Source of the DNA: a virus
DNA: 64,000 nucleotides
Direction: 5' to 3' (one strand)
Virus record (IMG/VR): IMGVR_UViG_3300045996_003284
Location: 10,248 to 74,247 of that record
Of this stretch, positions 10,306 through 59,334 are shown in pieces. Below the pieces are notes generated by a model. It made no database searches. It saw nothing but the letters and a program-made list of their open reading frames with translations, and was not told where the DNA came from. The position numbers were made by a program, and so were the translations under genes. Positions within the stretch are counted from its first letter, which is position 1. Each line of letters starts with the position of its first letter.

Positions 10306-11382
10306 TTAGGGAGGTGCGTTGCTGGAGAGCCAGACGCGCGGCGCGCTGTTGGTGTTGATCGCGGCCAGATTATGGTGGTTCAGCATGTTTCCAGAAATGT
10401 TCAGGTCGCTGGACGTGGCATCCGCTTCAATAGAGTGCTTGTGGCGCAAAGTGTTCCAGGACATGACCTGATTGCCCGTGATATTCCAGTTGGCCGACGC
10501 GATCAGCCGCAGGGCAGAATAGGTTCCGGTCGCGGCCTGACTGTTTGTATGGATAAAATTGCCGTTGAACACGCACCAGTTTGACAAATTGGCGTAAATC
10601 CCTTCCTCCCGGCTTTCCTCGAACCGGTTGCCGATGATTCTGAGCATATCGGAGTTTTCAAGCCTCAGAGCGTACCGGTTATTCCAATGTTCGTTCCCGA
10701 CATACTGCCCCGCGTGTGAATTGTGTAAGTAACATCCGGCCGTGGAATAGGGACCGGTGCCGCCGCCGAAAGCATTGTTGACGATGACAGGGTCGTGTGC
10801 CCAAAACATGTACAATTGTTCCAGACCATTTTCAAGAAATAGGCACCGCGTGACGCGATTGCCGGACTGAGGGATTGCCTCAGTGCCGCTGAATGCCAAG
10901 CCGTGCCCCCCAGCGTTGATCGCGAAAAAGCACCGATCGACATTGTTGGACCCATTTATACCCCAAAAGATGACGCCACTGCCGGTGCCGCTGCCGTGCT
11001 GGAAGGCCAATTCCTCGATTGAGCAAAAGGTGGCATCGTAGAGTTCGAGGACCGCGCCGTTGCCGAAACGCCGGATGGTGGTGTTGGTACCGCCCTCGCC
11101 GATGAGCCGGATATTCGTGGCGTTGGGAATGGACAAAACAGAGGTTGTACGGTAGAGGCCCGCCGGGAAGAAAACTGTCTTCCAAGCGTTTTGGCTGAGT
11201 GCCGCCTGGATAGCCGCGGTATCATCTGCCACACCGTCCCCCACAGCCCCGTACTGCCGCACGGAAACGGCGGACCGGCCTTCTACCGTATCAATAAGAT
11301 TGTAGATATCCTCTCCGGATATCCCGCCAACCGCGTTGAGCGGCATATCCGCCTTAAGACTGGACACAAGCTTGGCAACCAT
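10306..11382 (-). CDS. Pectate-lyase-like beta-helix tailspike/depolymerase with N-terminal LKxxMP module
   Basis: VSVRQYGAVGDGVADDTAAIQAAL, FFPAGLY, repeated I.GN/N.F rungs. Confidence 0.85.
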   Translation of the reverse strand: MVAKLVSSLKADMPLNAVGGISGEDIYNLIDTVEGRSAVSVRQYGAVGDGVADDTAAIQAALSQNAWKTVFFPAGLYRTTSVLSIPNATNIRLIGEGGTNTTIRRFGNGAVLELYDATFCSIEELAFQHGSGTGSGVIFWGINGSNNVDRCFFAINAGGHGLAFSGTEAIPQSGNRVTRCLFLENGLEQLYMFWAHDPVIVNNAFGGGTGPYSTAGCYLHNSHAGQYVGNEHWNNRYALRLENSDMLRIIGNRFEESREEGIYANLSNWCVFNGNFIHTNSQAATGTYSALRLIASANWNITGNQVMSWNTLRHKHSIEADATSSDLNISGNMLNHHNLAAINTNSAPRVWLSSNAPP

Positions 11383-11391
11383 AGCGACTCC

Positions 11392-12078
11392 TCAGCCCGA
11401 CAGAACCGAACCGTAGAAATGATTGGTGAACTGGTTGGTGAAAAGGTTCGCGGGGGCGTTCGGATCGATGATCGTGACAATCCCGAGAGCGTTTCCGAGC
11501 GTGCATCCAGACGCCTGGATCAACTCAACCGCCAAATCCTCGCGCATCTCGGACCGGGTGTCGCCGACCGTTGATAGGACGGCGGACTGTGTGCCGACCC
11601 CGGCTGCGAAGGTCAGAGTCTGCTGGAAGGCTGTGTAGTCCTCTGCGGGCGCGGCACTCAGCGCCACCGTCCGGATGGTGACGGAGCATGGTCCGCCGTT
11701 CGATTTCGTCACCGGAATCGCCAGTGTCTGACCCTCAATAACACTCAGCGCCTGCGGAATGCTGACAACTGGCAGCACCCCGCCACCCGATGTCGGCATA
11801 TAGCCAAGATTGCTGGACACCTGGATAGCGTCGGCCTCGTCGAGCGGAGCACGCCAAGCCCGGATTTCCTGGATCAACAGGCTGGCCGGCTCAAGACCGG
11901 ACGGAACGGTGGCACCGAAGCGCAGCACGGATACCGTGCCCGTGGTCAGGTCATCCCCGGCCGCGGCTGATTGCTCGCTGACTTTCCCCCCGCCGGCGTA
12001 CAGAGCCACCTTCACCCCGGCCTCCACCGTCAAGACGGCGGTCGTGATGATTCCGACCGGATCGTTCTGGAACGCCAC
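11392..12078 (-). CDS. C-terminal fragment of the tail lectin protein (LamG-like end, Calx-beta, FTNQFTNHF motif)
   Basis: Homologous to the second half of repeat 1 in 12241..14946 and in the same frame; GTG start with no RBS. Confidence 0.65.
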   Translation of the reverse strand: MAFQNDPVGIITTAVLTVEAGVKVALYAGGGKVSEQSAAAGDDLTTGTVSVLRFGATVPSGLEPASLLIQEIRAWRAPLDEADAIQVSSNLGYMPTSGGGVLPVVSIPQALSVIEGQTLAIPVTKSNGGPCSVTIRTVALSAAPAEDYTAFQQTLTFAAGVGTQSAVLSTVGDTRSEMREDLAVELIQASGCTLGNALGIVTIIDPNAPANLFTNQFTNHFYGSVLSG

Positions 12079-12240
12079 TGGTCAGGAACCCGCGCGGCGA
12101 ATATCGATCGACGACAGCAGCGTCGGTGCCTGGGCAAAGGACAGTTGGCTGCCGGTATAACTCAGTGATTGCATACTGCCTCCGAAAATGCGGACTTCAA
12201 GGCAAGCCGGCGCCGGTAAGGATGAAGGACCCGAGCGATG

Positions 12241-14946
12241 TCAGGCTGGATCATCGGCGGTCAGGACATCACCGTGTGAGAACACGCCGTTGACACCGCC
12301 TTCCGTATCCTTCGCCATCCAGATTCTCTGGACCGTTGGGGTGTCACGCAGCCGGATGAAGCGGATGCCAAGTGTGTAGTTGGCCTGTTGGTACCAGATC
12401 CCTGACGCCATCAGGATGTCGGCGGCACGGTGCGTCCGAGCAACGGCGCCGGTCACGAGGATGGGCGACGACATGTTGGCGGCCGGCTCAACCTGAAGAT
12501 GGCAGAGATCGAAACCGTTGCTGGGATCGCCGGCCAGCGTTGTGAGCTGCGTGGAGTCGGTGACTGTCACCGTGACCTGGGGGGCAACGTTGGCGGTGAT
12601 ACTCTGCGTGCGGGTAAGAGCGACGCGGTACCAGCCGACCATGATGGGATCGTTCTCCACCGTCGCAGTGACCCCAGAATCGACGGCCAGAACGGTGCCA
12701 GCCCCAACCAGATCGACATGTGTGGCACGGACAATGTTGTCGATGCCCCGGAAGGTCAATCGCAACCAGCGGCGGTTGACGGGGCGGAGAATCACCGAAA
12801 CGGTTACGGTTCCGGTCGGAATATCGCAGTTGGCCGAGGTCAGGGTCACCGAGATGCGGTGTTCGGCAGTCGTTGCGGTCTCTCGGAAGCGGAGATAGCG
12901 AGTTCCGGTTGGCGATGAAGTGTTGGGATCGATGATCGGGAACTCGCCGGTAAACTCACGGCTAAAGTCTTGGCTAAAGCCCTGAGCATCGGCGACATCA
13001 TATTCGAAGTTGTACTCTTCTGTAAACTCGTGCACCGGCTCCGGAGAGACGTATTCGGGACTGTACTCATCGCTGAACTCACGGACAGCGGTTTCCGCCA
13101 CAGCGGAGGACAGTGCGAGGACGCCCGCGGAAGGAATCCAGCCCGGATCGAAGCTGTCGAACAACCTCTGCTCGGCTGCCGATGCTTCCATCAGGAGACC
13201 GGACACGCCGGGAGCCGTGTAGTGCCGACGGAAGCCGTTGGCCGGGATCGCCGTCCACATTCCAAACTCATTGCGCGACCAGGCGGTTGAGGATCGTGAA
13301 AGGCTGAGCCCGTCCGGCAGCGCGGTGGTCAGGACCAGGCGGGTCGAGGTGTCTAAGCTGGCGCTTTCGGTACTGAGCAACAGCACGTTACAGACACCGT
13401 TTCCGATGGTGACGCCCGCGCCAGCCTGGATCTCGATCCGGAAGGTCCGGTCGGAGATGACGCTGCGCGTGAGCAGGCCGACCGTGATGACGGCCGAACT
13501 CTGTCCAACCGCGAAGGTGACCGTTCCCTGAGATCCCACATAATCACGGGAAGCCAGGGCGGTGCCGTCAAGGGTGCGGTAGGTGACCGTGCCTCCGGTC
13601 GGCTTTCCAATCAGGACGACCAGCAGGCTGACGGTTGTCGCGGCGGGCAAAACGGTCAGGTCAGGTTGAACGGTAGCCTCTGGAACGATTGCCGCGACAC
13701 CCGTCTGTGACAAATCCACGGAGTAGGACTGGACCGCCGACAAAGCCAGTGCGGTGTTCCAAAATTTGAGGCGGCGCAACAGCATCGGCATGGCTCGGCT
13801 GCCGTCGCTGCGCGCGCCGATGCGGAACGTGGTGAAAGATGAGGCAGCCGTTCCGGTGCCGTCGCTGCCCAGGATGAAACCGTCCTGTGATAGCAGAAAT
13901 CCGTTGGTAGCGTTGGTGAAGACGACCGTGCGCGCCGTGGTGGGCGGCGGTGCCGGACCGGACAGGTTGGTCGACACGGTGCCGCCGGTCGAGACGCTGT
14001 AGATGATGCTCGAGGCATCGTTGTCGATCTGGATGGAATCCGCGCCGGACAGATGCAGCACAGTAGCGGAACCGGAGGCATACGGAATGTACTCGACTCC
14101 GAATGTCTTGTCGCCGGACGTGACCCAGTCCACTGAAGTGGTCAGGATATCAGCCGGGCGGATGACAGTGGATGTTCCGGTGTTGAGGATCGGCGAGGTA
14201 ACCTCACTGCCAACTTCAGCGCCCGCGTAGGCCAACCAGAAGCCGCTGGTACCATCGCCGCTGAAGGCCCGGTTGCCACCAGGATCGTAGACGTTCATTT
14301 GGAGCGCCGGAGCCGTGGTTCCGGTGCCGTAATCGTTGACCGCCGTTAGAGTGTAGAATCCATCGGTGTCACGCGTGATTGACGCGCCGGCCAGCCCGTT
14401 GCTGCTGATAACGGCGCCGTTGCCTTGAAGAAGAAAGCGGGCACTCGCGATGGCCCCGCTTTTGGCGGTCAGGAACAGGCCGATGCTGCTGTAGGTCCCA
14501 GTCGGCTTAAGAACGGCGGTGACCGCGATGGTAACTGCGTCCGGCAAGACTGCCGCGTGGCTGGCGTTGCCGAAGATGCAGTCCCATCCGTGAAACGCGT
14601 TGGTTGTGTTCGGGGTAATTCGGAGCGCGCCAGAACCAAACGGAGTCTGTACCGTGGAATCCTGCACCAAGGTGGCTTGAACCGACGTGAAGGTCGGCTG
14701 GCGGGTCCGAAAGATCAGTTGGGTGCGCGCCGGTTCGACGATCGTGTAAGGACCGTTGAGCGTGATCGGATGGTACCAGGTCCGCGGCTGGTTGGCGGCG
14801 ACGGCAACCCAGCGTCCGCTGTTGTTGCGGCCCAGAGCCACAGCATCCCGTTGCAGGGTGATGCCAGTCGGGACCGCGCCGCCGAACTCGAAAGTCCGGG
14901 ATGCCGCCGGCAGGATCTCGTTCGTATCTTCTTGGAAGAACCACAT
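12241..14946 (-). CDS. Tail receptor-binding protein: two LamG-like lectin repeats and Calx-beta; second repeat truncated
   Basis: Two T/S.R.....N..G.W....N..R...E...Q repeats; VTYRTLDGTA...DY....GTVTFA.G Calx-beta. Confidence 0.75.
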   Translation of the reverse strand: MWFFQEDTNEILPAASRTFEFGGAVPTGITLQRDAVALGRNNSGRWVAVAANQPRTWYHPITLNGPYTIVEPARTQLIFRTRQPTFTSVQATLVQDSTVQTPFGSGALRITPNTTNAFHGWDCIFGNASHAAVLPDAVTIAVTAVLKPTGTYSSIGLFLTAKSGAIASARFLLQGNGAVISSNGLAGASITRDTDGFYTLTAVNDYGTGTTAPALQMNVYDPGGNRAFSGDGTSGFWLAYAGAEVGSEVTSPILNTGTSTVIRPADILTTSVDWVTSGDKTFGVEYIPYASGSATVLHLSGADSIQIDNDASSIIYSVSTGGTVSTNLSGPAPPPTTARTVVFTNATNGFLLSQDGFILGSDGTGTAASSFTTFRIGARSDGSRAMPMLLRRLKFWNTALALSAVQSYSVDLSQTGVAAIVPEATVQPDLTVLPAATTVSLLVVLIGKPTGGTVTYRTLDGTALASRDYVGSQGTVTFAVGQSSAVITVGLLTRSVISDRTFRIEIQAGAGVTIGNGVCNVLLLSTESASLDTSTRLVLTTALPDGLSLSRSSTAWSRNEFGMWTAIPANGFRRHYTAPGVSGLLMEASAAEQRLFDSFDPGWIPSAGVLALSSAVAETAVREFSDEYSPEYVSPEPVHEFTEEYNFEYDVADAQGFSQDFSREFTGEFPIIDPNTSSPTGTRYLRFRETATTAEHRISVTLTSANCDIPTGTVTVSVILRPVNRRWLRLTFRGIDNIVRATHVDLVGAGTVLAVDSGVTATVENDPIMVGWYRVALTRTQSITANVAPQVTVTVTDSTQLTTLAGDPSNGFDLCHLQVEPAANMSSPILVTGAVARTHRAADILMASGIWYQQANYTLGIRFIRLRDTPTVQRIWMAKDTEGGVNGVFSHGDVLTADDPA

Positions 14947-14948
14947 TG

Positions 14949-16415
14949 CTAGGCGCTGGTGTGAGCGATGGAAAAACTGAAGTCAGCGGCATCCGCGGTG
15001 ATCGGCGTCAGCCGCAGTGTCAGCCGAGAACCAACCTGAACCTGAACAGGGCTGGATGGTGCCACCTCAGCGACACCGAGAGATGTCGCGATGCCAGAGA
15101 TTGGCGTCCCGCCAACCGGTGTGGCTCCGAGAAACAATTCGAAATTGACCGATCCGGAGATGCAAGTTGCCGCCATTGAACTGATGCTAATGGCGTGGTT
15201 GGCGCGCAGAATCAGCGTGTAGGATTTGACCTTGGGCCTTTCGATCATACCGCTAAGAGTGCCGGCAACACCGATAATGCGGCGTCCGGACAACGTGAGG
15301 TCACCGCCCAGACGCGGAGTTGGATCCGCCTGGAGGGTGGCGATACCCGGAGCCGGCGGGGTATAAGGGCGCCACAGGTTGTCACTTTCCAAGCGCAGGC
15401 TCTGACCGACGGTGGCGCTGGCCAGGCTGGTGTCTGGGCTGTCAACCAGTTTCTGAGCGCGGCGTCCGATGGTGTACTGACCGGACGCCTCGCCGGTCAC
15501 CGTGAACTGGTTGGGATCGAACAGCAGCGAGCGTAGCCTCAGCGAAACGCCCGACTTGTCGGAGAAGATGCGGACGACGGTGGCACCAGTCGCGCCGAGG
15601 TTTTCAGCCGTGTTGGCCTCGCCGCCGCCGGGTGTGCTAGTGCCGCTGATGACGATGTCGTTGCCATCGCGCACCACCGAGACGCCGTTAAAACCGCGCA
15701 ACCCGTAGGTGTTGAGTACGGTACCGGTCTTGGGTGCAGCAATTGAGACGGCCTGCCCGGCAGCCAGGCTACCGAGGGTGTTGACCTCGCCCGGCGCCGG
15801 ACTGCTGATCGTGATATCGCTGGCGTTCTCGGTCACCGTAATACCACCGGTGGACCGGAGTCGACGGAAGCTGTGGACGGTGCCGGTGTTGCCGGCGTAG
15901 ACAGCGGCGGCTCCCGTCTCCGAGGTCAGGTTGACGATCGAGATGGCGAACTCGCCGGGAGCGGTGAATCCGTAAGTACCATCGGGTAGCTTGGCCAGAA
16001 GTTGTCCAGGCGTCGCGGTGGTGCTCGCAAGGTCCGTGATGTCACGCATCCGGATCGTGCGATCCCCGCCGTCCACCGATCCCAGGGCTCCGGTCAGGTC
16101 AGCGTCGATCTCGTAGATCGTGCGGCGGAAGACTGAGACCGCGTCGATGTCACCGGGTGCTGGGACAGCGTAGCCTCTCGGCGTGAAGTCGCGGGTGACC
16201 CAATAGTTGGCGTTCGACCGACTGAGGCCTTGGTAGGTGCCCGTTAGGATGATTTCGGTATCGGAAATGACAACGGCAACTGTGTATGTCAGGCCGTCGC
16301 CGTCCGCCATAAACCAATCGCCGGACTCGATGTTGATCAGCCAAGCGGTGCCAGTTCCAAGGACCGTAGGAGATCCGTTAGATACCGTGACTGTGCCGGT
16401 GCGGTACTGCGGCAT
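14949..16415 (-). CDS. Side tail fibre
   Basis: MPQYRTGTVTVSNGSPTVLGTGTAW N-terminus, GE.NT..L repeats, C-terminal beta-sandwich. Confidence 0.8.
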   Translation of the reverse strand: MPQYRTGTVTVSNGSPTVLGTGTAWLINIESGDWFMADGDGLTYTVAVVISDTEIILTGTYQGLSRSNANYWVTRDFTPRGYAVPAPGDIDAVSVFRRTIYEIDADLTGALGSVDGGDRTIRMRDITDLASTTATPGQLLAKLPDGTYGFTAPGEFAISIVNLTSETGAAAVYAGNTGTVHSFRRLRSTGGITVTENASDITISSPAPGEVNTLGSLAAGQAVSIAAPKTGTVLNTYGLRGFNGVSVVRDGNDIVISGTSTPGGGEANTAENLGATGATVVRIFSDKSGVSLRLRSLLFDPNQFTVTGEASGQYTIGRRAQKLVDSPDTSLASATVGQSLRLESDNLWRPYTPPAPGIATLQADPTPRLGGDLTLSGRRIIGVAGTLSGMIERPKVKSYTLILRANHAISISSMAATCISGSVNFELFLGATPVGGTPISGIATSLGVAEVAPSSPVQVQVGSRLTLRLTPITADAADFSFSIAHTSA

Positions 16416-16918: not shown

Positions 16919-17370
16919 GTCGCGGTAATCTCCACCTTCCATGGCAGGAACGGGAACCGCCGGACCTCGATCGTGTAGACGCCAGGTGTCGCGGCGGCGA
17001 ATTCGAAGCCGCCGCCGAAGACCTGGGTCGTGGTCGTCTCAACGGTGGGATCGGGATCGTCGATGATGATCTCGCACGGGTTCGGTAGGCCCGTCAGAGT
17101 GGCGAAGTCTTCGCCATCGGCCGTGATGGCCGTCTTGTCAACGGCAACCTGCAGAACGGCCTTGTCGACCACGATTTCGACGCCGTTGAAAACCTGGACG
17201 TACTGAGTATTCGGATCGCTCGCGACTTCCAACAGATCGTGGTTGTCACTGCCCCACGGTGCCAGCGCCGCGCTGATCTGGGCGTCCCGGAATTCCGCGA
17301 TCAGCAGGATACCGCCGCTTGAGACGATTTCGCCGGTGTCGGTGCGGTAGATGGTGACCGGAGATGTCAT
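16915..17370 (-). CDS. Tail tip accessory protein
   Basis: ATGA overlap with the J stop; IY...TGEI N-terminus and Ig-like C-terminus. Confidence 0.6.
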   Translation of the reverse strand: MTSPVTIYRTDTGEIVSSGGILLIAEFRDAQISAALAPWGSDNHDLLEVASDPNTQYVQVFNGVEIVVDKAVLQVAVDKTAITADGEDFATLTGLPNPCEIIIDDPDPTVETTTTQVFGGGFEFAAATPGVYTIEVRRFPFLPWKVEITAT

Positions 17371-20300
17371 CTCTTGTACTCTACCGCAACAATCTGGCAC
17401 CGGGGCTTGGCAGCTCCCATCCAGAAGGGGTCCGTGAAACGGACCCAGCCGGCATTCCCAGCGTTGGACTGGACGTCCCATCTCAGCGTCGTTCCCGGCG
17501 CAACCTGGAAGATATGAGACAGGGTGGCGGAATCGTTGATGCCTTCCATTTGGGCGGCGACGCCGTTCAGAAGCATCCTTACGACCGCTGGGCCAACCAA
17601 AAGCAGATGCGTGGTGACGTGGATGGTGCCTCCGCCCACCGAGGACCAGCCCATGATGTCGGTGTTCTGGAAACTCATGTTGTAAGTGGCGCCGGCCACC
17701 AAGTTTTCCATGCCAGCGACGGCGACGCCGAGGCCATTGGCTGTCAGGATATCCTTTCCGACGAGGTCTCGGACATAAAGGCCATCCAGAACCCGGTTCG
17801 GTGTTGGACCGTTCTGGCCGATCGACACACGTGTAACACCCGCCGAATCAACGAATCGAAGCGCTCGATGATTAGACCGACTTTCAATGTCGATAAACCC
17901 GAGGCCGGGCGTCTGGTCGCCGATGCGGATGTACTGAGCGTTGACGATGCCGCCGCGAAGACGATCAACGTTAAGTTCTTCGACATGGCCGGTGTTGATC
18001 TGGGCTAAGCCGATGTGGGCGCTGTTGATCAGGCCGCTGTCGATCTGAGCCGTGGCGGTGATCAGGCGCTGGGTTGAGAGTTCGGTTGCCGTGATGGACT
18101 GAGCCTGGATACGGTCGGCGTTTATAGTCCGCGCCCGGATGCCGTTGCCGTCGATGATCGTGCGGGCATAGGAGACGAAGAGGCGCTCCGCGCCGGTATA
18201 CGTGCCAAGGACGATTACGGACGGATTGGCGTTGATGGCCTGATCGGTCGTGCCGCTGATGTTTCCCGTTCCGACAGTCCAATAGATAAAGAGGACGCCG
18301 GTGGTCCACTGCAGCGAGCCGCTGGTGATGGCGTAGGTCGTGACGCCATTGCTGTCGGTTGCGGGCATGATGGCCGTACCGGCCGTCCAGGTTACCTGGG
18401 ATGTTTCGCGCACCGGCGTGAAAGCAACGTTGACGAATTCAACGCCGACCCCGACGGTGAGCTTGTCAGCCGTGATGGTCCGGGCGGCGATCGAACCGCC
18501 GTGAATCTTGGTCTGGTCCGGCCCGTACAAGATGTTGGCCAGGGTTGTTCCGCTGCTCAACGTGATTTTGCCGGGCAAGATCGTTGTCGTGCCGCGGTTG
18601 ATGGCGGAGGCGGGGTCGCCACTGGCCAGAACGGTCGCGCCGAGAGTCTGGCCAGTTCCGGACACGATGACCTCGCCGGACAGGACGCTGCCGGCGATGA
18701 TCTTGTTGGCGTTGAGGCTGGCGATCTTGGCGTCGTCGATTGTGCCGTTCGCGATCGCCGCGTTGACGATGCTCAGTTCCTGATAATCCGCCTCCTCAAT
18801 TTTCTTTGTCCGCGCCCCGATACCGCCGGTCAGGCTGGCTGGGAAGAAGCTGGATTTGTTACGCGAGCGATCAACCGCCCGGATCCAGTAATAGAACTGA
18901 GCACCACCGGGCAGGTTCTCACGGGTGAACGTCGTGCCCGGCGCGTTGGCGATGTAGGTTGCCTGGGTGCGGTCGTTGACGGTCGCTTCCCAGATCTCCA
19001 TGTGGGAAAAATCCGGGTCCGGATGCGCCGGCCATTGCACCCAGATCGTCTTAAAGGCCGAACTGGGCGTCAGGCTGGTGGGGACGCTCGGGGCTTCGTC
19101 GTCTCCACCGATGACGATGCTGACTTCCGGACTGGATATCGAGTCGTTGAAGTTGTAATCCGAGGCGCTGAGGCGGACACGATAGAGGGTTCCGGCCTGA
19201 ACCATCCACTCATAGCGCGGTACGTTGGTCGAGAAGAACAGGAAATTCCCAGTTTCCTCCGCGATTTCGACCCCATAACTGCGAAAGTCGTCGTCAGCGT
19301 TGGCGGCCCAGGTCGCGATCAGCCAGAATGTCTTGGTGCCGTCCGGCCCCATCCGGACCTCGTCCGTGAGCGCAAGGCCGGTGGGGACCGCCGGGGGCAC
19401 CGTGTCGGCATCCTCCACACCGACCGTGACCACTTTGAGTTCGGCCGAGACGTTGAGACCCGTCTTGCCGAAACTGTCGTAACCGGCGACGCGCAAGTAG
19501 CGGGTAACCTGGATCGGCGCTTGGAGGAAGATAAAGTTGTTGGGGCCGTCGTAGACAACGGCTTCTGGGAGGGTTGCGAAGCCGGAGGTGTTGCCCATCC
19601 AGACGATGCAGCCTTCGTAGTCGAGATCGGCAGGTTTGTCGAAGCTGAGGAAGATGGAGCCGTAGCCGCCCTCGGCCATCAGGCCGGTGACCTGAGCAGG
19701 GGCGGGGTTGGCAACGTCGATGGCGGCCGGCTTTGAGTAATTACCCCACTTGTCGCGCATCAGGACTTCGAACTTGAAGGCCCGATACGGCCCACCAGGC
19801 GACTGGCTGTTGCGCTCGAAGCTGAAGATGTAGCGCGGCTCGGTGACGTGGTCGACGAAGACCATGGTTCCGTTGAGGGTATAGACTCGGACCTCATAGT
19901 CCCGGAAGATAGGATCGAGATAGCCAGCGCCGGCAGCCGGTTCTGTGCCCATTGGGTAGGCACCGCGCACGGCGGTGCCGCGCCAGACGAAAACCGGGTC
20001 GCGCCCCAGGAACTCGTGGTTATTGCCTTGTCCTTCGATCTCCAGGCCAGTTGGGGTCAGCAGCGTGATCGGGCTGGTGTCAAGAACGTTCGCTTCCAGG
20101 ATAGCGGGGCGGCTGAACACGCCGGCGAAATTGACGGCGTGAATATGGATCAGGAACTGGCCAGCGCTGTCACCATAAATGGTCTGCGTAAGGCCGGTCA
20201 CTTCGTTAAATTCGGTGAAGTTGCCGCTGTTGCGCCGGTAACGAACGACGTAGCCGCGAATAAAAGCGTCCGGACTGGCATCCCAGGAGATCTGGAGGGC

Positions 20301-41810: not shown

Positions 41811-41897
41811 TGCTTACGTTCCAGCCTCTTCGCGCGCAGGACAGCGGACCTGACGTCACCCTGACATCAGGGTCGTCGATGGACAGATCAGAACCGA

Positions 41898-42311: not shown

Positions 42312-42328
42312 GGCGGATCTCCAGACAT

Positions 42329-42353
42329 AAAAAAAGCCACCGGAAAGGGCGGC
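42329..42353 (-). terminator. Intrinsic terminator before subunit B
   Basis: GC stem plus TTTTTT, then ATGTCTGGAG. Confidence 0.7.
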
Positions 42354-42391
42354 TGACGGAAGAGAGCGGAGCAGGGAAGGCAGTCGACCGC

Positions 42392-45332: not shown

Positions 45333-45804
45333 TGTCAGGGGCCACGTTCAGAGCGCGGGCCGCGGCGACATCGAGATGATGGACCCGCGTTAGACCGATT
45401 TCCTCGGCCCGGCTGATCTGGGTATCCCCCAGCGCGACCATGTCATCACGCTGTTGTTCGGTCATGGCGCCGGCGACAACCATGGTCGAGAGCAAATTGA
45501 ACACGGCGGTGGCGATCTCCGGATCGTTCATTCGGATGGTGTCGAACGAATTGGGCGCCAGGGTTTGCAGAATGGTGATGGCCGATCCCCGGAGGATCGG
45601 GTCCTCCGAGGCGGTGACGGCCTGGATGCGCGGCCACAGGCCCTTGAGCAACACGTGGCTGCGAACTTCCGAGGCCGACACTGCCCTCTTGCCGGGGCGG
45701 GTTGGGGCGTTGAGGGTATCAGCCACGGCGCTGTCGGCCATCTCGGCATAGCCGAGGTTAAGCGGATCGGAGTCTATCTCCGCCGCGAGGGTTTCCAGAT
45801 CCAC
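45325..45804 (-). CDS. Helical phage protein of the filament cassette (GTG start)
   Basis: AAAGGA RBS; L.AEI.SDP...GY......VA..LN ... SRAEEIGL. Confidence 0.65.
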   Translation of the reverse strand: MDLETLAAEIDSDPLNLGYAEMADSAVADTLNAPTRPGKRAVSASEVRSHVLLKGLWPRIQAVTASEDPILRGSAITILQTLAPNSFDTIRMNDPEIATAVFNLLSTMVVAGAMTEQQRDDMVALGDTQISRAEEIGLTRVHHLDVAAARALNVAPDNG

Positions 45805-45835
45805 GGGAACGGTTCCTTTCGATGCTCGGGATGTA

Positions 45836-46309
45836 TCAGAGGGATTGGCCCAGTCGGCGGATGGGCAAGCCGATGGTGCGCTCGAAGATTTGGCCGTCCA
45901 TGGCGTTGACCGTGCAGAGCAGGGTGTGGATTTCGCCAGGGGGCTCCCATCCCGGATGGTTGCGTTCATCTTCGTCGATCTGGAACCAGACCGTGATGTT
46001 GGTCATGTCGTTGGTGATGCCGTAGATCCGCAAACCGGCAGCGACGGCGAGCGGCAACAGGACGAGGCTGACCGAGGCGATCCGGTTGGAGATCCCGTCC
46101 ATTTCGACGGAGCAGTCAATGGTGTAGTTCTTCAATTCGTTGGGGTCGAGCGGGTTGGTCCAGGTCACTGTGCCGGTGCCGTTGCCGAAGTTGACGGTCC
46201 GCCAACTTGGCGCCAAGGCATGGCTGATGGCTCCTATATCACCATCGAGCAGCAGTTTGCCGTTTCCCACCAGCAACAGGTAACTGCCGTTTGCAAGAAC
46301 TAAGGCCAC
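45836..46309 (-). CDS. Fibre anchor/adaptor protein with N-terminal LLxxxG repeats
   Basis: LVLANGSYLLLVGNGKLLLDG, then LDP.ELK.YTIDC...FERTI. Confidence 0.7.
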   Translation of the reverse strand: MALVLANGSYLLLVGNGKLLLDGDIGAISHALAPSWRTVNFGNGTGTVTWTNPLDPNELKNYTIDCSVEMDGISNRIASVSLVLLPLAVAAGLRIYGITNDMTNITVWFQIDEDERNHPGWEPPGEIHTLLCTVNAMDGQIFERTIGLPIRRLGQSL

Positions 46310-46394
46310 GGCGAATCCCCCGTGTCGAACAAAAAGTGTAAACGGCAACCGTTAGAAGATCGGTGAACGCTCCTCAGTCTGATTTAGGGTGCGA

Positions 46395-49069: not shown

Positions 49070-50083
49070 TTAAACAACCCACCAGTCGCCCAGTCCAACC
49101 GCATTGACGTCCAGGATATGGAGCACATGACCATCGTTGTCGGTGCTGGTATAGGTCGTGATGCCGTCATGCTCGACGGCTGTCGTCGTCATCTGTCCTT
49201 CGCCGCCCCGGAACGACAGAGTGTCGATACCGTCCCCTGGGCCGTCGGTGATGGAATCGAAGTCCGTGATGACGTCGTGACCCATCGGCAATTCGTTTGG
49301 ATGATTCGGGTCGAACGCGAGGAAGTCGAAGACGAAGTCGTTGCCCCCACCCGAGTCACCGCCACCGGTGAAGGTCTCACTGCCCTTCCCGGCGATAAAC
49401 ATATCATCCGGCGAGCTGCCGATCACGGTGTTATCGCTGTCGCCGCCGTGATAGATGAGAGAAACCGGTTCGCTGCTGCCCTCAGTCGTGATCACGTTGG
49501 TGCCGGTGAAGACGAGCCTGACCTCGGACTCCCCCGTATCAAAATTCTGGGTGGTGAGATGCCCCTTGCTTTCCCCGGTGATCCAGACCTCAGGGTTTCT
49601 GCCAATGTCAAAGGCCAGGGTGTCCCGGCCGGCATTGCCGTCGAACCGGCTGGTACCATAGTACACCTCGTCATGGATTCCGCCGATGAAGAAGGTGTCA
49701 TCCCCAGTACCGCCGCGCGCGGTGTCCTTACCACCGTTGCCGAATAGGGAATCGTTTCCGGCTCCGCCGTTGAGAAAATCGTCGCCGCCGCTCCCGAGCA
49801 GGAAATCCTGGCCGGCATCGCCGTACAGCTTCAAGGGGCCGCCACTGTAAAGACCCCAGAGCGTGTCGTCGCCGCGTCCGCCCCAGGCACTGTCACGCCC
49901 GCCCTCGGCGAGGTCGATGAAATCGTCACCGTCCTGCCCGTAGATCTTGTTGTTGCCGTCACTACCCTCAATGTGGTCGTCGCCGGCACCGCCATAGGCG
50001 TTTGACTTCCCCGACAAGTAGATATTATCGTCGGATTTGGTGCCGTGTACGGTAGCGTTTTTCTTGCCGTGGATGGTCGCCAT
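49070..50083 (-). CDS. RTX (hemolysin-type) Ca2+-binding repeat protein, moron
   Basis: About 10 GGxGxDxLx nonapeptides, G.D.ITDF; AT-rich upstream region and its own terminator. Confidence 0.9.
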   Translation of the reverse strand: MATIHGKKNATVHGTKSDDNIYLSGKSNAYGGAGDDHIEGSDGNNKIYGQDGDDFIDLAEGGRDSAWGGRGDDTLWGLYSGGPLKLYGDAGQDFLLGSGGDDFLNGGAGNDSLFGNGGKDTARGGTGDDTFFIGGIHDEVYYGTSRFDGNAGRDTLAFDIGRNPEVWITGESKGHLTTQNFDTGESEVRLVFTGTNVITTEGSSEPVSLIYHGGDSDNTVIGSSPDDMFIAGKGSETFTGGGDSGGGNDFVFDFLAFDPNHPNELPMGHDVITDFDSITDGPGDGIDTLSFRGGEGQMTTTAVEHDGITTYTSTDNDGHVLHILDVNAVGLGDWWVV

Positions 50084-50212
50084 GGAGTCCCCCAAAAATC
50101 TTTATTGATTGGTGACAAGGGCGTTCATCTTACCGGATTGCGTCTAAAAAAGAATTATACTGAACGGTGTTTATACGAAAGATAACATGACTTGTGTTGT
50201 TTCTGCACAGGT

Positions 50213-53206
50213 TTAACGCGGCACGATGGTCTTGCCGCGGACGTCATAGCCGCTGCCGGGGAAAGCATCCTTGCGGGACAGAAGATTGTTGCGGGCAAGT
50301 CGAATGCGGGCATCGTCGGGCGCCACGAACCATTGGTGAAAGTCTAGGGCTGAAATCACATGGACAAAGTAGCTGTTGGCGTCGGGCTGAAATTGGCTCG
50401 CCGACCGGAACGTGTGGCCTGGAACCCCAAACAGGGAGTTCACGATGCAATTGCCATTGATATTGACACCCCCCGTGTTGAAGGTCACGGGAGGCCCGCC
50501 GGGTGAAAGCGCAAGTTTTATTGTGTTAGAGGATGCCTGAACCGAATAGTAAAGGTTGCCGATCGTTAACCCGGCCGGAATTTTAGTCCGGTCTATGAAC
50601 CTAAGATAGTTGTTTGGATCCGTAATGCCCGTCGGTGTGATCACCCAACCATTTTGTGCCGCGGTCGTATCCCACCCAGGACTCGTGAGGGCGATGGTTT
50701 GATTGTCTGTCCTGTAGGTACAGGCTAGGTTGATATTACTCCATTGTCCCGGCGTCCAAGGACGGCGGTCTTGCAAAGTGGCGCCCCCACCTTCGCTGCT
50801 GATCAGAACATCGATCACGGTTGCTTTGTAAGGGTCGCATTTTAGACTATAGTACTTCGGGTCGGTATCATTGTGAAACCCCCCGGCCAGGACCATCGGA
50901 ACATAACTCCACCACTCCGCCTGCTGCTTGATGTCCGGGTCCTCACAGAGGCCGTAAGCAACCGAAAGCGCATCAACACCAAAATTATGCATCCAGGTTG
51001 CGTAACCGCCATGAGCCGTTCCGTTCTCTTTTAGGTGGGTGTCCAGATAGCGCCGGCCGTCGAGGACGTTGTTGCCATTCTGGCCGCCGGCGATGCGCCA
51101 GAATCCGGACTGGTAAGGTTGGATTCGATCGATCTCAACCCAATGCTCTTTATACGCTTTAACCAGTTTGTAGTTTGCGTCCGCTGGGTTTCCCATCGCG
51201 AAAGCATGCAGGATGCAACGCGCGTTGTGCGAGACGGCGCGGACCTGACCCAACGCATTCATGCCACCGCACGGCGTGCTCAGCCAGTCAATGGTCATGC
51301 AGCGGCCGTGATTGGGTTCTGTGAAGACCCCCGGCAGGGTTGCCTCCATGTACAGGGCGTCCAGGAAGTGCTGGTCGCCCTCGCTCAGGTAGGTCCAGAG
51401 ATTGATCTGCGGGAAGTGCGCGGCGTCCAGATTGGTGATGCCGGTTTCCTGCACGACCCCGTTGATGACCCCCGGATTCATCTCAATGCCATTGGCTTTT
51501 TGCACGATGGCTGGAGGATCAGCGGTGGTCCAGATGCTCGGTCCGAACAGCGCGGAATCCGGATTGCGGGTGGGCGGCAGGTAGCAAAGGATCTTGCGGG
51601 TCGTCCGGTTGTAGCCCTGACCGTGCATAGCGCCCATACCCCAGGCCGTTACCCGCATGGCCTGCTCGTGGTTGGCGAGTTGGGCCGCGGTGGCGCGGGC
51701 ATGAGCGGCGATGCACCGGGCGTGCGGCTTGCTGGTGCCCCACGTGATCATCTCAGCATCGCCGACATCGGACTGGTTGTGGCGCAAGAGACCGCGCCGC
51801 ATCGGGGCGTAGCCGGGAGGCGTGGTGATCAGCGTGCTGAATGCCGGATTGTTGACATCCAAAGGCGCGAACATCCGGCTTTCGATGCCATACGGAACGT
51901 TGTGGCGGTACACCAGTTTCGGCGGGTTATGAACTTGGTTGGCTTGAAGATCGAACCAGTCCATTTTTCCTTCAGAACCGACCGAGGCGATGAAGCACCC
52001 CTTGGATGACCTGACGTTCGTCCAGGCTCCGTTTCCATTGGTGACGCCGCGCAGGGTTGTGGCGTTGACTCGGACATCGGCGCTGAACTGGATGCCCTGC
52101 TGATCGGCCTCGACGTTGGTCTGCCACCCATAGATCGTCTTGAACAGAAACTGAATGCGCTTGGGGTTGTCGGGGGTGCCGCCCCAGGCGCGCAGGTAGA
52201 GCCAGCAGCCGAAATGGGGGTCCTTAGTCGTGGTGGTGCCCAGCGTGGCCATATCGGAGATGCGCCACTCGGTGCAGACGGGACCGGACATGACCGGTTC
52301 GAACCATGCGCTGTTCGAGGCGGCGACCATGTTGGCCAGTTTGAAGGTCTTCAGTCCTTTCTCGGCGGTCAGCACATTCGTATGGGTCCGACCCTTCCAC
52401 GACGTGAAAGCGAACTCAATGGCGACTTTGGAGGCGAGCGGGGTCGGAGAGGTATGGATGCCGGTGTCCTGGGCCGTCCAGGTGCCGGCTTGGCGCTGCC
52501 AGATGATATCCTTACCGGTTCCCGCCGCGATCACGGGCATCAGCCACCGGGCCTGTGCGTGCTTCAGCGAGCCATCGGGCCAATAAGTCCGGTTGCTGAG
52601 CTGGCAGGGTATCCGATTGCCATCAACGGCCGCGTGGACGATGGTGCCGGTCGGCACGTGTCCTTTCTTGAAGACGACGCCAGCGTGCATTTCCTGACTG
52701 GCCAGACTGGGCACCGTGTCGTAGTTCTCAACGCGCGCGGTATAAAGGTTCTCGATCGTGGGGCTGCTGACGGCGGTAACGCGCAGCGTGATGGTGAAGA
52801 CCTGATCGAAGTTGCCGACCTGCAAAGTCACGGTGTGGGTGGCCGTACCCCCCAGCGCGGTCAAGCCGACGACCAGCCGGTACCCGGTCGGCCATGAACC
52901 CTGGAGCGCCACCCTTCCACCCGCATCCGAGGTCAGGACCACGTCGTAGCCGGTGAATTCCGGTACCGGCGGCCCCCATTCGTCCGTGAAGTCGTCGGTG
53001 AATTCGGTTCCGGGAACCGGAGCCGCGATGGGGAACCCGACAAAGACTAGATCGGCAAGCTTGGTTCCGGCTGTCAAGTTGCCGAGCACATCAATCGCTA
53101 GGGGTTCGACCCGGCGTTCGGGCACAACGATGACGCCCGGACGGCGCAGCAGACCGCCGCCGGGGCCGAGAACCAGGCCACCGTCGGGAGAGCGCAGGAG
53201 ACCCAT
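50213..53206 (-). CDS. Large virion-associated protein resembling beta-supersandwich/alpha-barrel polysaccharide lyases
   Basis: GVVFKKG.VP...P.Q....YWPDGSLKHA, SGPVCTEWR, D.AH.P....YL..GD..FLD.L. Confidence 0.6.
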   Translation of the reverse strand: MGLLRSPDGGLVLGPGGGLLRRPGVIVVPERRVEPLAIDVLGNLTAGTKLADLVFVGFPIAAPVPGTEFTDDFTDEWGPPVPEFTGYDVVLTSDAGGRVALQGSWPTGYRLVVGLTALGGTATHTVTLQVGNFDQVFTITLRVTAVSSPTIENLYTARVENYDTVPSLASQEMHAGVVFKKGHVPTGTIVHAAVDGNRIPCQLSNRTYWPDGSLKHAQARWLMPVIAAGTGKDIIWQRQAGTWTAQDTGIHTSPTPLASKVAIEFAFTSWKGRTHTNVLTAEKGLKTFKLANMVAASNSAWFEPVMSGPVCTEWRISDMATLGTTTTKDPHFGCWLYLRAWGGTPDNPKRIQFLFKTIYGWQTNVEADQQGIQFSADVRVNATTLRGVTNGNGAWTNVRSSKGCFIASVGSEGKMDWFDLQANQVHNPPKLVYRHNVPYGIESRMFAPLDVNNPAFSTLITTPPGYAPMRRGLLRHNQSDVGDAEMITWGTSKPHARCIAAHARATAAQLANHEQAMRVTAWGMGAMHGQGYNRTTRKILCYLPPTRNPDSALFGPSIWTTADPPAIVQKANGIEMNPGVINGVVQETGITNLDAAHFPQINLWTYLSEGDQHFLDALYMEATLPGVFTEPNHGRCMTIDWLSTPCGGMNALGQVRAVSHNARCILHAFAMGNPADANYKLVKAYKEHWVEIDRIQPYQSGFWRIAGGQNGNNVLDGRRYLDTHLKENGTAHGGYATWMHNFGVDALSVAYGLCEDPDIKQQAEWWSYVPMVLAGGFHNDTDPKYYSLKCDPYKATVIDVLISSEGGGATLQDRRPWTPGQWSNINLACTYRTDNQTIALTSPGWDTTAAQNGWVITPTGITDPNNYLRFIDRTKIPAGLTIGNLYYSVQASSNTIKLALSPGGPPVTFNTGGVNINGNCIVNSLFGVPGHTFRSASQFQPDANSYFVHVISALDFHQWFVAPDDARIRLARNNLLSRKDAFPGSGYDVRGKTIVPR

Positions 53207-53210
53207 GGTG

Positions 53211-56201: not shown

Positions 56202-56240
56202 CAGTCGGCTCCATGGGGGTGCGGGCGGGCAGGGCGCTCA

Positions 56241-58349
56241 TTAAAAGGTCGGCCCGGCGGCCAATGAAACGGTGCCGGTCAGGCTGGCGGGGGCGGAACC
56301 GCCGGTTCCACTGTTGGGGATGGGCACGCTTAGGGTGTTCAGCCGGGTATAGATCAACGGCGTCCGGCCGAGGTCGGAAACGATGTCCTGGCCAGACGCG
56401 ATGGCCTGGGTCTCGGCGGCGGACAGCGTGCCGTTCATCTTGAAGAAGCTGGCCAGACTGCCGTCGAGCCAGCGGGCGCTGCCAGAGATGGGCGGTGCGC
56501 GGGTGGCGAGGACCGGCTCCTCGGTCGGCTGAATGGCGCCGAGACCGGCGACTGAGCGGCTGAAGTAAAGCGTGCGGGAGCCCTTGAGGGGCGTCTGGTA
56601 GATGTTGAGGGTTTCGGTGGCCTTGATCCGCTCAACCGTCCAGAGCCGCCAGGCAGCCGTGGTCAGGCTGGCGTCGGTCAGGCCAATCGCCTGATAGGCG
56701 GAGACCCCGGCGCCACGCACGTTGGCTTCGATGGCGTGGGGGACCGCGGCAGCGGACTCGTGGATGAGGAAATTGACGCTGTGGCTGGTGGTGTAGCCGC
56801 CGACCGAGATGACGTATTGCGCCGCGGTGCCGGTGTTGTCAGCGACCGAAACCCAAACGCCCAGAGTCCAGTCGGCATCCGGGAAGTCCCACAGGGCGCT
56901 GTCAGCGTAGGTGATGCAACCGGTCAGGCCGTCGAAACGCAGCGCCGAGGTCTGGATACCGGGAATGACCGGATCGACCGGCGGGGTCGTCGTGGCCGGC
57001 GCGTTGACCGGGTCCATCAGGGGCAGCATAGCATTGCCGGTCGTGCGGCCCAGAGCGGTGACGTTGTCAAGGATGGCGGAGGTTCCGTCGAACCGGCCGT
57101 ACTGGTAATAGACATCAACGTCCGTGCCAGGATCCGCCGCAAGATGGATCGTAATGGTGCTAGCGCCGATGGCCATGCTGGAAATCGCGAGACTGCCCGC
57201 GTCGCTGTAGGCGGTGTTTTTGGTAAACACCTTGAAGTCGCTCGGTTGGGTGCCGCTGCTGAGCGCCAATGCCGTACCGGCGCGATGCTGGACCGACAGG
57301 GTCAGCGTGTGGCCGGAGCGGCTGACACCGGCGATCGCCGGCCCGAGGTTGGGGCGCAGCTCGGTCCCGATAGCATAAAGCAGAGCATGGGCGTAAGCGT
57401 TGGCGATGGTTTCCGAGCCGGCGGGCGTCTGGTTCGACGCGTCGGCGAGCGCTACGGTGGGTGTCCAGCCAAGGTTGAGAGTGCCGGGGTTCTCGGCGAT
57501 GTACTCGAAGTGGGCGCGGCGCAGATCGTGGACCGCGTCGGTCGGGTCGGCGTTCCGGCGCATCAGAGGGAACACGGCAAAGCGCTGGATGGTCGCGATG
57601 CTTTCCAGGCGGGTGCGAAGGTCGGCCAAACGGGTCTTGTACTGCGCGCGGGTGAGCAGGCCGATGTCGCCGCTACCCTGGTGCCACAGGATGGCACCGA
57701 CCCGGCCAAGACTGGCAAGCGCGGACGCAGCGGCGGTATAGGCAGAATCGGCGGCTTCCCAATCAGCGATCGAGACGCTGTCAGTGGCAGTCTGGAGCAC
57801 AGCCTGGGGCACGCCGGTGGCGGTAGCCATCAGGTTGAGGAAACGGATGATGCCGTTGCCGCTGGAGTTGGGGAGCACACCGGGCAGTTCCCAGGCCGCG
57901 CCGTCGAACACGACGGTGCGGTCATCCGGCGTCGGTGGGGCATCGACCGCGGTGCTCATCCGGCGCTGCTGAGACGCCCCGGCGAAAACCCAAACATCGC
58001 CGACGCCCCACTGGGTGGTTCCGGTGACGATCTGGACGGTGTTGAGGAAGCGGACTTGGATCTTGTACCAACCACCCTGGGGCACGGAAATCGACCCGCT
58101 CCAGGTGCCGCCGGAAGGGGATGGCGCCGCCACCAACCAGTCCTGAATTACGGCAAAGGTCATGCTGTCGATGACGCGCGCCTCAACGGCGGCCGGAATT
58201 CCGGTGTAGCTGCCGGACAGCGGCACCGGCGAGGCAGCGCCAATCCGCTGGTAGACACGCCGCGGCGCCACCTGGGACAGGGCGATCGTGCCGGTTGCGA
58301 CGGTAACGTTCCGGCGGCGCGCAGCGGCCGAGGCGGCGGCGATGGTCAA
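56241..58349 (-). CDS. SGNH/sialate O-acetylesterase-like domain plus LamG domain
   Basis: VPQGGWY...WGVGDVWVFAGASQ, GAILWHQG; C-terminal ALRFDG...DWTLGVW. Confidence 0.8.
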   Translation of the reverse strand: MTIAAASAAARRRNVTVATGTIALSQVAPRRVYQRIGAASPVPLSGSYTGIPAAVEARVIDSMTFAVIQDWLVAAPSPSGGTWSGSISVPQGGWYKIQVRFLNTVQIVTGTTQWGVGDVWVFAGASQQRRMSTAVDAPPTPDDRTVVFDGAAWELPGVLPNSSGNGIIRFLNLMATATGVPQAVLQTATDSVSIADWEAADSAYTAAASALASLGRVGAILWHQGSGDIGLLTRAQYKTRLADLRTRLESIATIQRFAVFPLMRRNADPTDAVHDLRRAHFEYIAENPGTLNLGWTPTVALADASNQTPAGSETIANAYAHALLYAIGTELRPNLGPAIAGVSRSGHTLTLSVQHRAGTALALSSGTQPSDFKVFTKNTAYSDAGSLAISSMAIGASTITIHLAADPGTDVDVYYQYGRFDGTSAILDNVTALGRTTGNAMLPLMDPVNAPATTTPPVDPVIPGIQTSALRFDGLTGCITYADSALWDFPDADWTLGVWVSVADNTGTAAQYVISVGGYTTSHSVNFLIHESAAAVPHAIEANVRGAGVSAYQAIGLTDASLTTAAWRLWTVERIKATETLNIYQTPLKGSRTLYFSRSVAGLGAIQPTEEPVLATRAPPISGSARWLDGSLASFFKMNGTLSAAETQAIASGQDIVSDLGRTPLIYTRLNTLSVPIPNSGTGGSAPASLTGTVSLAAGPTF

Positions 58350-58762
58350 ACGGAGGTATCCCCAGTCAGCAGAACCTGCGGAGCACCGCCAACGTTGCTG
58401 TAACAGACCAGATAAGCGGCAGCGTATTGGCCGGCAGTGCGGACGTGGTTTTCACGGGACCGGACGTTGCCACCGAGGACCACGAAGGTGGCCGAGCCCA
58501 GGCCGACCTGGGCTACCATGATCTGGAAGCCGACCGGCATGGTGCTGGGCAGGGTTATCGTCACCGCCGTTGGCGAATTGACGATGATCGTCCGCCGGTT
58601 GTCGGCCTCGGTGACGACGTAGCTGGCGGTCTTGGTCAGGACGTCCTGGGTGGTGCGATCCTCGACCGTGTCGATGAAGTCATGGAGATCCTGGATCGAG
58701 GTGCCCCGGATCTGCCCGATGGGCATCTTGGCTTTCAGCCCGGAAATCGTATCGACGGCCAC
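58346..58762 (-). CDS. Fibre adaptor paralog 2 (GTG start)
   Basis: GGAG RBS; TISGLKAKMPIG...QDLHDFIDTVEDRT; TTGA overlap with 56241..58349. Confidence 0.8.
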   Translation of the reverse strand: MAVDTISGLKAKMPIGQIRGTSIQDLHDFIDTVEDRTTQDVLTKTASYVVTEADNRRTIIVNSPTAVTITLPSTMPVGFQIMVAQVGLGSATFVVLGGNVRSRENHVRTAGQYAAAYLVCYSNVGGAPQVLLTGDTSV

Positions 58763-58917
58763 GTCGCTACTCCGATTGTTGGTCGCGGTTGGGGATGCGG
58801 GCCTGCGGGGGAAGCCGGACTTAAACGGTGATCTCAAACACGACGGAATGGGGCCAACAGCGGCGCGAACGGTCTTGGCAAAAGTACCGCAATCGCCTTC
58901 CTTTGGGAGGGGAGTGT

Positions 58918-59334
58918 TTACACCGCCGTATCACCGAAGAAGGCTACCTGGGGAGCGGTCCCGGCGTTGGCATAGCAGAACAGGTGGGCCATGCTGCCGG
59001 TGCCGGCCAGTTTGGTGTGGCTGCTGCGGTGCAGGAGCGTGCCATCGGTCACGGCGACGGTGACCTGTCCAGCGCCGATCTGGAGGATGATGACTTCCCA
59101 GCCAACCGGGACGCTGTTTGGGATCGTGAAGGTGACGCCGGAGGCGGCGTTGAAAACCAGACGCCGACGGTTATCGGTAAGAACAGCCGTATAGTTGGCC
59201 GTCTTGGTGATGACCTCCTGGGAGGTCCGGTCTTCCAGCGTGTCGACGATGTCGTGGATGTCCGAGACGGTCGTGCCGCCAGCCACGCCGATCGGCATGT
59301 TGGTCTTGAGCGTAGCGATTGTCTGAACGGTCAT
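58918..59334 (-). CDS. Fibre adaptor paralog 3
   Basis: TIATLKTNMPIG...DIHDIVDTLEDRT ... GDTAV. Confidence 0.8.
   Translation of the reverse strand: MTVQTIATLKTNMPIGVAGGTTVSDIHDIVDTLEDRTSQEVITKTANYTAVLTDNRRRLVFNAASGVTFTIPNSVPVGWEVIILQIGAGQVTVAVTDGTLLHRSSHTKLAGTGSMAHLFCYANAGTAPQVAFFGDTAV

Follow-up and report, generated by a model that had tools for sequence, protein, structure and literature searches.

Two recurring sequence elements were found in the late genes of a virus from IMG/VR (record IMGVR_UViG_3300045996_003284), of which we analyzed a stretch of 64,000 nucleotides (bases 10248 to 74247 of the 74.2-kb record, hereafter the window). One is a short aromatic peptide with a period of four residues (here called the tag), found at a terminus, in a linker, or in a loop of its proteins, and the other is a module of ~37 residues that opens proteins with otherwise unrelated cargo. 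We propose, with a probability of roughly 0.6, that the two form a docking pair, in which the tag would be the docking peptide and the module the matching adaptor, clipping spikes and knobs to the virion. The motifs, the portability of the module, the coupling of both elements by gene order across lineages, and their joint presence on single chains were observed directly.

Aromatic tags in the window

A preliminary description of this DNA had reported six motifs of the form F/Y-x3-F/Y-x3-F/Y/W in four proteins. All six are present where it placed them, on the minus strand like every tag and module of the window:

11392-12078, minus strand: gene of a 228-aa tag-bearing protein with a Calx-beta match
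11416-11442, minus strand: tag FTNQFTNHF close to the C-terminus of the 228-aa Calx-beta protein, with seven residues between it and the stop
12241-14946, minus strand: gene of a 901-aa protein with Laminin_G_3 and Calx-beta matches (phrog_5939 tail protein)
13051-13077, minus strand: tag FSDEYSPEY in the 901-aa protein
13000-13026, minus strand: tag FTEEYNFEY in the 901-aa protein
12940-12978, minus strand: tag FSQDFSREFTGEF in the 901-aa protein
43197-44897, minus strand: gene of a 566-aa LamG-type fiber carrying FGMEFSYEFSTEF
43977-44015, minus strand: tag FGMEFSYEFSTEF, with four Phe and preceded by E-F, in a linker of the 566-aa fiber protein
50213-53206, minus strand: gene of a 997-aa PcRGLX-like protein carrying FTDDFTDEW
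52976-53002, minus strand: tag FTDDFTDEW, near the N-terminus of the 997-aa protein

The three tags of the 901-aa protein (12940-13077) had been placed inside a lectin domain, and they do lie there, in a loop insertion of ~59 residues in the second lectin-like half, as seen when this half is compared with its paralog, the first lectin-like half. The rule that the tags follow is tighter than first stated, with [FY]-[STGN]-x-[DEQH] repeated and ending in F, Y, or W. The corresponding strict pattern ([FY][STGN]x[DEQH][FYW][STGN]x[DEQH][FYW]), which was devised after the motifs were seen but recurs in relatives at homologous and new sites, has eight overlapping matches in the 42 proteins of the window (16,202 aa), against a mean of 0.011 in 2000 residue shuffles, and two matches in 847,279 aa of six-frame open reading frames (ORFs) from 74 control loci. 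A loose pattern of any aromatic residue with period 4 is not enriched in the window proteins (12 matches versus 6.9 +/- 2.8). Each tag has from three to seven aromatic residues overall (seven in contig L268), and from three to four, with period 4, in the window.

Homologs of the 566-aa fiber in other contigs carry GDEFTSEFTSEFG (L118) and NEFSYEFSSEF (G004), and in the family of the 997-aa protein four relatives retain the tag site as FT[FYS]EFTNEF, with indels in its flanks. Codon usage inside the tags varies freely, which argues that selection acts on the peptide.

The N-terminal module and its carriers

Four proteins had also been said to begin with a common module, and this was confirmed (gene starts at 11382, 38282, 58762, and 59334):

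10306-11382, minus strand: 358-aa tailspike; module (~11272-11382), then a pectate-lyase-like beta-helix
37860-38282, minus strand: 140-aa mini-spike; module and knob domain
58346-58762, minus strand: 138-aa mini-spike with a GTG start; module and knob domain
58918-59334, minus strand: 138-aa mini-spike; module and beta-sandwich knob

The first ~37 residues of the four align without gaps. Eight positions (M1, L9, K10, M13, P14, D25, D31, and T32) do not vary among 11 aligned sequences, and the consensus, ..TIAxLKxxMP..G..(S/T)xxD(I/L)HD(L/I)(I/V)DT.E.R, consists of a short helix, a loop, and an acidic helix. A profile of the first 45 residues found 49 clusters among 1.84 billion proteins (E values down to 5e-20), and in ~45 of these the module occupies residues 1 to 45. 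Behind it come pectate-lyase-type beta-helices, GH16/ConA-like domains, coiled segments, or a small domain of ~100 residues (the knob). Such unrelated cargo points to a portable N-terminal adaptor. The module belongs to no Pfam family and shows no detectable sequence similarity to a solved structure, and PDB sequence searches with the clade-only (A2) and broad (A6) module profiles returned nothing meaningful. It was not found in GTDB genome contigs by pattern and tblastn, nor was the mini-spike found in the cultured phage genomes of INPHARED by tblastn or homologs of the window's tailspike in IMG/VR.

The 358-aa protein is a beta-helix tailspike (PF12708/PF13229), with profile matches above the curated cut-off for PF12708 (54.2 bits, cut-off 27, E 2.2e-14), to NosD (48.6) and Beta_helix (33.3), and to tail spike PHROGs. 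The other three carriers, 138 to 140 aa long, look like minimal spikes composed of an anchor and a distal knob without a shaft. The AlphaFold2 model of the mini-spike at 58918-59334 (mean predicted local distance difference test [pLDDT] score of 85) has helices at residues 6 to 12 and 23 to 37 joined by a loop, then a confident beta-sandwich; the knob follows the module directly, with no triple beta-helix shaft. This knob superposes best on gp52 residues 195 to 294, which form the C-terminal knob of the capsid spike of Pseudomonas phage Pa223, with Z 13.9 and a root mean square deviation of 2.4 over 96 aligned residues at 14% identity (Foldseek E 2.9e-5). Its likeness to the N-terminal (XD-type) domains of T4 gp9/gp10 and CBA120 TSP4, hubs on which other fibers are mounted, is clearly weaker, with Z values of about 9 that are common among beta-sandwiches (9.4 for T4 gp9 and 9.1 for TSP4 residues 79 to 180; 7.8 for a T4 baseplate chain).

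Coupling of tag and module in close relatives

One tag gene was reported to end 9 nt before a module gene; these are the gene of the 228-aa protein and that of the tailspike, separated by a spacer at 11383-11391. Mini-spike genes were seen in nine contigs of IMG/VR and in two metagenome contigs. In each of four lineages (L003/L009, L005/L010, L007, and L093), a miniprotein of 45 to 95 aa that ends in a tag is encoded directly before the mini-spike gene. The C-termini of these miniproteins are FSSEFSTEFI*, FGPDFSTEFN*, FSTDFTPDFA*, and FSSDFSPEFA*, their N-terminal stretch is basic, and in three of the four lineages the stop overlaps the ATG of the mini-spike (TGATG). For L003, we also considered that a -1 frameshift might fuse the Ig-like gene with the tag ORF, but dropped the idea, since the tag ORF has a conserved start of its own (MxARR..), which makes a separate miniprotein the simpler reading. 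The window has a short ORF at the position where its relatives encode the tag miniprotein:

59331-59402, minus strand: 23-codon ORF without a tag, its stop overlapping the start of the mini-spike

This ORF is possibly a remnant or decayed copy of the tag miniprotein, to which its similarity is weak.

Both elements can also share a chain: P0015 (156 aa) and P0021 (963 aa) have the module at their start and FSSDFSNDF and FSTEFSSEF, respectively, at their end, when ~0.04 strict tags would be expected in the 49 module proteins at the background rate. The AlphaFold2 monomer of P0015 shows the tag as coil (pLDDT ~58) with no fold-back, a result that is uninformative for a trimeric joint. With the clade-only profile, a new module-bearing tailspike was found in L118, a contig first picked by its tag alone. 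Tags move between hosts: in the relative G001, the gene that follows gpJ has FSTDFSYEFGH* at its end, and its homolog in the window is without a tag.

Coupling beyond the clade

The strongest evidence for the putative link between tag and module is their coupling outside the window's clade. The preliminary description had called for a test of motif co-occurrence across phage genomes, and pattern scans of IMG/VR revealed a gene-order link reaching far beyond this phage, with exceptions that are considered below. The scans used the tag alone as a DNA pattern, or the tag plus one codon and a stop overlapping an ATG, and thus no information on the downstream protein beyond the ATG of the second pattern. 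Many of the matches were tandem 12-nt repeats; such artefacts and matches outside ORFs were set aside. In a series of unrelated contigs (L129, L139, L167, L168, L178/L252/L254, and L231), a module-type gene comes directly after a C-terminal tag, and the tailspikes of L169 and L242 show the same arrangement with a looser match. The N-terminus behind these tags, MxDTxRT.A.L.....G...I(S/T)AQDLRD..(S/T), is collinear with the module of the window, having a short helix, a Gly-containing loop, and the helix (S/T)xxD(L/I)(H/R)D(L/I)(I/V). By a post hoc core pattern, nine ORFs among 8290 in the tag loci have this type of N-terminus, all nine directly after a tag (called by pattern for eight and by eye for L231, FEGDFSTEFY*), and none among 6327 control ORFs has it. 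The clade-only profile is too narrow for this broader module (L168 reached only E 1.1).

A reverse scan with I[ST]AQDLRD alone gave seven module lineages, and in six of them the gene upstream has an aromatic period-4 tail at its end (FSSAFSSAFNR*, FDTGYSSAFSQ*, FNVQFGGEF.., AFDRAFATAFDVYFGGAF.., EFSSDFDVLSF.., and FTTEFTSEFD*); some of these tails, such as the first, have no acidic residues. The cargo behind the module belongs to at least 10 families with no detectable mutual similarity, one of which (L264) carries the window's knob domain, and Pfam and PHROGs gave no named families for the tag- and module-bearing proteins of unrelated phages. The genomic contexts of the pairs are of sipho-, myo-, and podo-type. 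The tag-bearing genes of L178 and L231 are located between head-tail connector genes and the tail sheath gene, and an ESM Atlas look-up, to be taken as a lead only, found that the tag protein of L178 resembles the tail terminator and Mu Gp37 families. Given this placement and likeness, the joint would sit at the neck at these myovirus-type loci, whose module protein has 89 aa.

A covariation of tag and module (Ala-rich tags with 'ADN.TG' modules, acidic tags with others) was dropped, because the acidic set had been chosen by an acidic search pattern and the lineages were too few. Six further contigs (L111, L141, L165, L172, L177, and L180) encode a conserved family of ~270 to 340 aa with the internal motif ..PGYV[DE]FS[IV]DFSSEFRD.., which is tag-like but neither terminal nor adjoining a module gene.

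Genomic setting of the window

The tags and modules belong to a minus-strand late operon of the lambda-like siphovirus type, which extends from ~63 kb down to 10.3 kb of the window on a record without a terminal repeat. Its main parts, in transcription order, are as follows:

62329-63180, minus strand: scaffold gene, start of the late operon
61185-62177, minus strand: major capsid protein gene (phrog_247, E 4e-101)
59480-59962, minus strand: gene of an Ig-like protein of 160 aa whose tail is rich in Pro, lying between capsid and mini-spike genes
34696-59334, minus strand: block of ~25 kb of fiber, lectin, and glycan-active genes, situated between the genes of the major capsid protein and the head-tail adaptor
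after the 25-kb block, minus strand: head-tail adaptor Ad1, head closure, neck, tail terminator, and major tail protein
further along the operon, minus strand: tape measure, gpM/L/K/I-like genes, then gpJ (17367-22256)
after gpJ, minus strand: distal block with a fiber (14949-16415), the 901-aa lectin protein, the 228-aa protein, and the 358-aa beta-helix tailspike

The motifs had been described as shared by head and tail loci. This stands for the gene positions, which fall in the block between the major capsid and adaptor genes and in the block after gpJ, but not for locations in the particle, as gene position says nothing on the place in the virion. In most siphoviruses, the interval from capsid to head-tail adaptor holds a few small genes. 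Here it encodes three beta-helix proteins, a PcRGLX-like protein, a SASA esterase-LamG protein, LamG proteins with 24-aa repeats, and a 341-aa protein with RTX calcium-binding nonapeptide repeats (49070-50095; PF00353, E 8e-18).

Small genes are duplicated at 41376-42814 and 44904-45332, giving 137-aa/140-aa paralogs (phrog_3758, virion structural protein) and 144-aa/142-aa paralogs, each of the latter directly upstream of a LamG fiber gene (806 aa and 566 aa); of these two fibers, only the 566-aa one has a tag. A 170-aa ORF at 45836-46348, which overlaps the ORF at 45325-45969, has a C-terminal domain in common with the C-terminus of the 566-aa tag-bearing protein (APSWRTV.FG.G...V.W..PL.P.ELK.YTI.C...). 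The same record also carries Trb/Tra-type conjugation genes (TrbB-, TrbE-, and TrbL-like ORFs, recognized by reading their sequences), located at 1-6000 of the window and in the 10.2 kb of the record upstream of it, and converging on the end of the phage late operon.

A proposed docking pair and its alternatives

In the reading that we prefer, the tag would be a short linear docking peptide made of F-[ST]-x-[DE] repeats and displayed by particle proteins at a C-terminus, in linkers, or in surface loops, and the ~37-residue module would be the matching adaptor on incoming spikes and knobs. By clipping onto the tag, the module would fix its cargo to the virion non-covalently. In the window, the 228-aa, 901-aa, 566-aa, and 997-aa proteins would serve as platforms, and the cargo would be one beta-helix depolymerase-like tailspike and the three mini-spikes of 138 to 140 aa. 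We infer the physical contact, its stoichiometry, and the assignment of module to tag. The interpretation in the preliminary description is thus borne out in part. It went further and had three aromatics fill the three sites of a trimer and any socket-bearing spike plug into any peg, and neither idea found support; the three to seven aromatics of the tags (four in FGMEFSYEFSTEF, seven in L268) speak against one aromatic per trimer subunit, and a variable-length amphipathic peptide lying along a groove would fit these counts better. Its division into pegs and sockets is arbitrary: known branched spikes dock via a conserved N-terminal piece of the incoming spike.

Several observations weigh against a docking pair. 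The tag and the second helix of the module are both acidic, so a contact would need aromatic/hydrophobic faces, the conserved K10/R36 (or R6), or bridging cations. When 80 loci surrounding related capsid genes were compared, the combination of tag and module was seen in the five closest and in 0 of 73 others; being limited to one clade among phages with related major capsid proteins, that co-occurrence alone is confounded by descent. In L012 (12790-14460), a 95-aa tag miniprotein with extra F-x3-F stretches precedes a 443-aa fiber that has a different, widespread N-terminus (..GDPVRTAGQKINANFEELY) in place of the module. Other N-termini also follow the tags of L255, L125, and L132, the lineage L262/L269 has the module with no upstream tag, and the core pattern behind the nine-of-nine count was devised after the data were seen. 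Two of the database proteins, P0042 and P0047, carry module and knob at the C-terminal end of enzymes, an arrangement suggesting that the module is also usable as an internal neck (plus tip); one is a fusion to a beta-helix enzyme and the other to a different large N-terminal part. Lastly, gene adjacency can also reflect co-assembly or a chaperone role instead of a lasting joint. A complex prediction with three mini-spikes (L010, 13288-13704) and three cognate miniprotein ends (last 35 residues) scored 0.00 in two runs made without controls, which counts neither for nor against contact.

The alternative that survives best, although we consider it rather unlikely, is that the module attaches directly to capsid or tail and that the tags merely travel with fiber genes while serving another purpose, such as holding trimers together or binding another common partner. 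It is based on the attachment of the Pa223 spike via its own N-terminal 40 residues, gp52 being anchored at the capsid three-fold axis solely via residues 2 to 41 (bioRxiv 10.1101/2025.06.11.659172). The match of the mini-spike knob to that of Pa223 (Z 13.9), the location of the mini-spike genes directly after the capsid and Ig-like genes, and the acidity of tag and module alike would all agree with it. However, direct attachment leaves unexplained why a tag gene so regularly precedes the module gene in myo-, sipho-, and podo-type contexts that are unrelated, often with a stop that overlaps the start, and why two proteins have both motifs at opposite ends. The tailspike gene at the distal end of the tail block also opens with the module.

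It is improbable, in our opinion, that the tag is a transient assembly signal and the upstream protein, above all the miniprotein of 45 to 95 aa, a chaperone or nucleation factor for spike trimerization that is absent from the final joint. Dedicated chaperone genes often precede or follow phage fiber genes, the tight stop/start coupling is as expected for 1:1 synthesis, and the miniproteins are small, with no recognized fold and a basic N-terminal stretch. Yet the same tag is found on unlikely chaperones, inside large structural proteins (the LamG fiber, the lyase-like protein, and the lectin-domain loop) and on the terminator-like protein (by ESM Atlas) encoded just before the tail sheath gene, and known fiber chaperones usually work on C-terminal tips. 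That both motifs are chance or low-complexity features without function is scarcely credible and already contradicted by the counts: even though the loose pattern is not enriched in the window and many IMG/VR matches are tandem 12-nt repeats, the strict tag occurs eight times against 0.011 expected, is conserved at homologous sites with free codon choice, and stands at the extreme C-terminus of many independent proteins, and the module reaches E values as low as 5e-20 against 1.84 billion library proteins.

Relation to known spike systems

In KP32, K11, and KP34, which are podophages of Klebsiella, the receptor-binding protein (RBP) RBP1 has a branching domain and RBP2 a conserved N-terminal docking peptide (PMC6872550; PMC13352976). 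As in these branched RBPs of the anchor-branch type, the docking pair proposed here would mount several spikes per virion via a short conserved N-terminal piece on otherwise unrelated spikes, with the cargo exchanged, the anchor kept, and the partners in neighboring genes; the module resembles such a docking piece in being common to four window proteins and 49 database clusters with differing cargo. N-terminal docking of several spikes is also established for CBA120 and G7C-type phages, the platform being a folded gp10-like domain. Instead of the folded T4 gp10-like platform domain of the Klebsiella RBPs, the candidate platform here is an aromatic linear peptide of 9 to 13 residues at termini, linkers, or loops, and neither Pfam nor PHROG gave a branching-domain match in the tag-bearing proteins. 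Unlike those RBPs, the module has no detectable sequence relation to solved structures, and the pair is found among genes of siphovirus and myovirus type. Experiments have demonstrated binding for the Klebsiella proteins; for the pair described here it is a prediction.

The capsid spike gp52 of Pa223 (PDB 9ny6) is trimeric, with a ~40-residue N-terminal attachment piece and a distal knob (bioRxiv 10.1101/2025.06.11.659172). The mini-spikes of the window likewise end in a C-terminal TNF-like knob, which superposes on gp52 residues 195 to 294, but they have 138 aa and no shaft, whereas gp52 has 295 aa and a triple beta-helix shaft (residues 42 to 200). The Pa223 spike binds the capsid lattice directly, and no tag-like partner has been described for it; the genes of the mini-spikes, for which anchoring to the capsid would be a conjecture, adjoin the capsid gene. 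In adenovirus, the fiber tail motif FNPVYPY, a short aromatic linear peptide, binds the penton base and fixes the trimeric fiber to the capsid. That motif belongs to a eukaryotic virus and lies on the N-terminal tail of the fiber itself, whereas the tag would lie on the platform, and the two have no sequence relation. A literature search with the motif strings found nothing relevant. Taken together, the system probably represents modular spike docking or attachment in a new form, for which a putative docking pair is the best-supported reading.

Implications for phage spikes

More tentatively, and with odds that we would place a little below even, the pair may be a widespread and so far undescribed docking code, in which an aromatic period-4 peptide on the platform (F-x3-F-x3-F, usually F[ST]x[DE], at a C-terminus or in a loop) would receive a two-helix module on the spike (..L..(M/F)(P/A)..G..I(S/T)xxD(L/I)(H/R)D..) in sipho-, myo-, and podo-type phages with at least ten cargo families. 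As the module has no Pfam family or solved relative, the pair is a concrete target for structure determination.

Receptor-binding proteins and their mounting decide the host range of phages and cannot be read from sequence for uncultured phages today. If the docking pair is real, spike architecture would become predictable from genomes, with attachment readable from gene order and protein termini. It would also explain how many glycan-active spikes can be carried on one particle, of which this phage encodes ~25 kb in its capsid-neck interval, and it would provide a compact handle for spike swaps in laboratory phages, where cargo could be re-plugged by exchanging ~40 residues.

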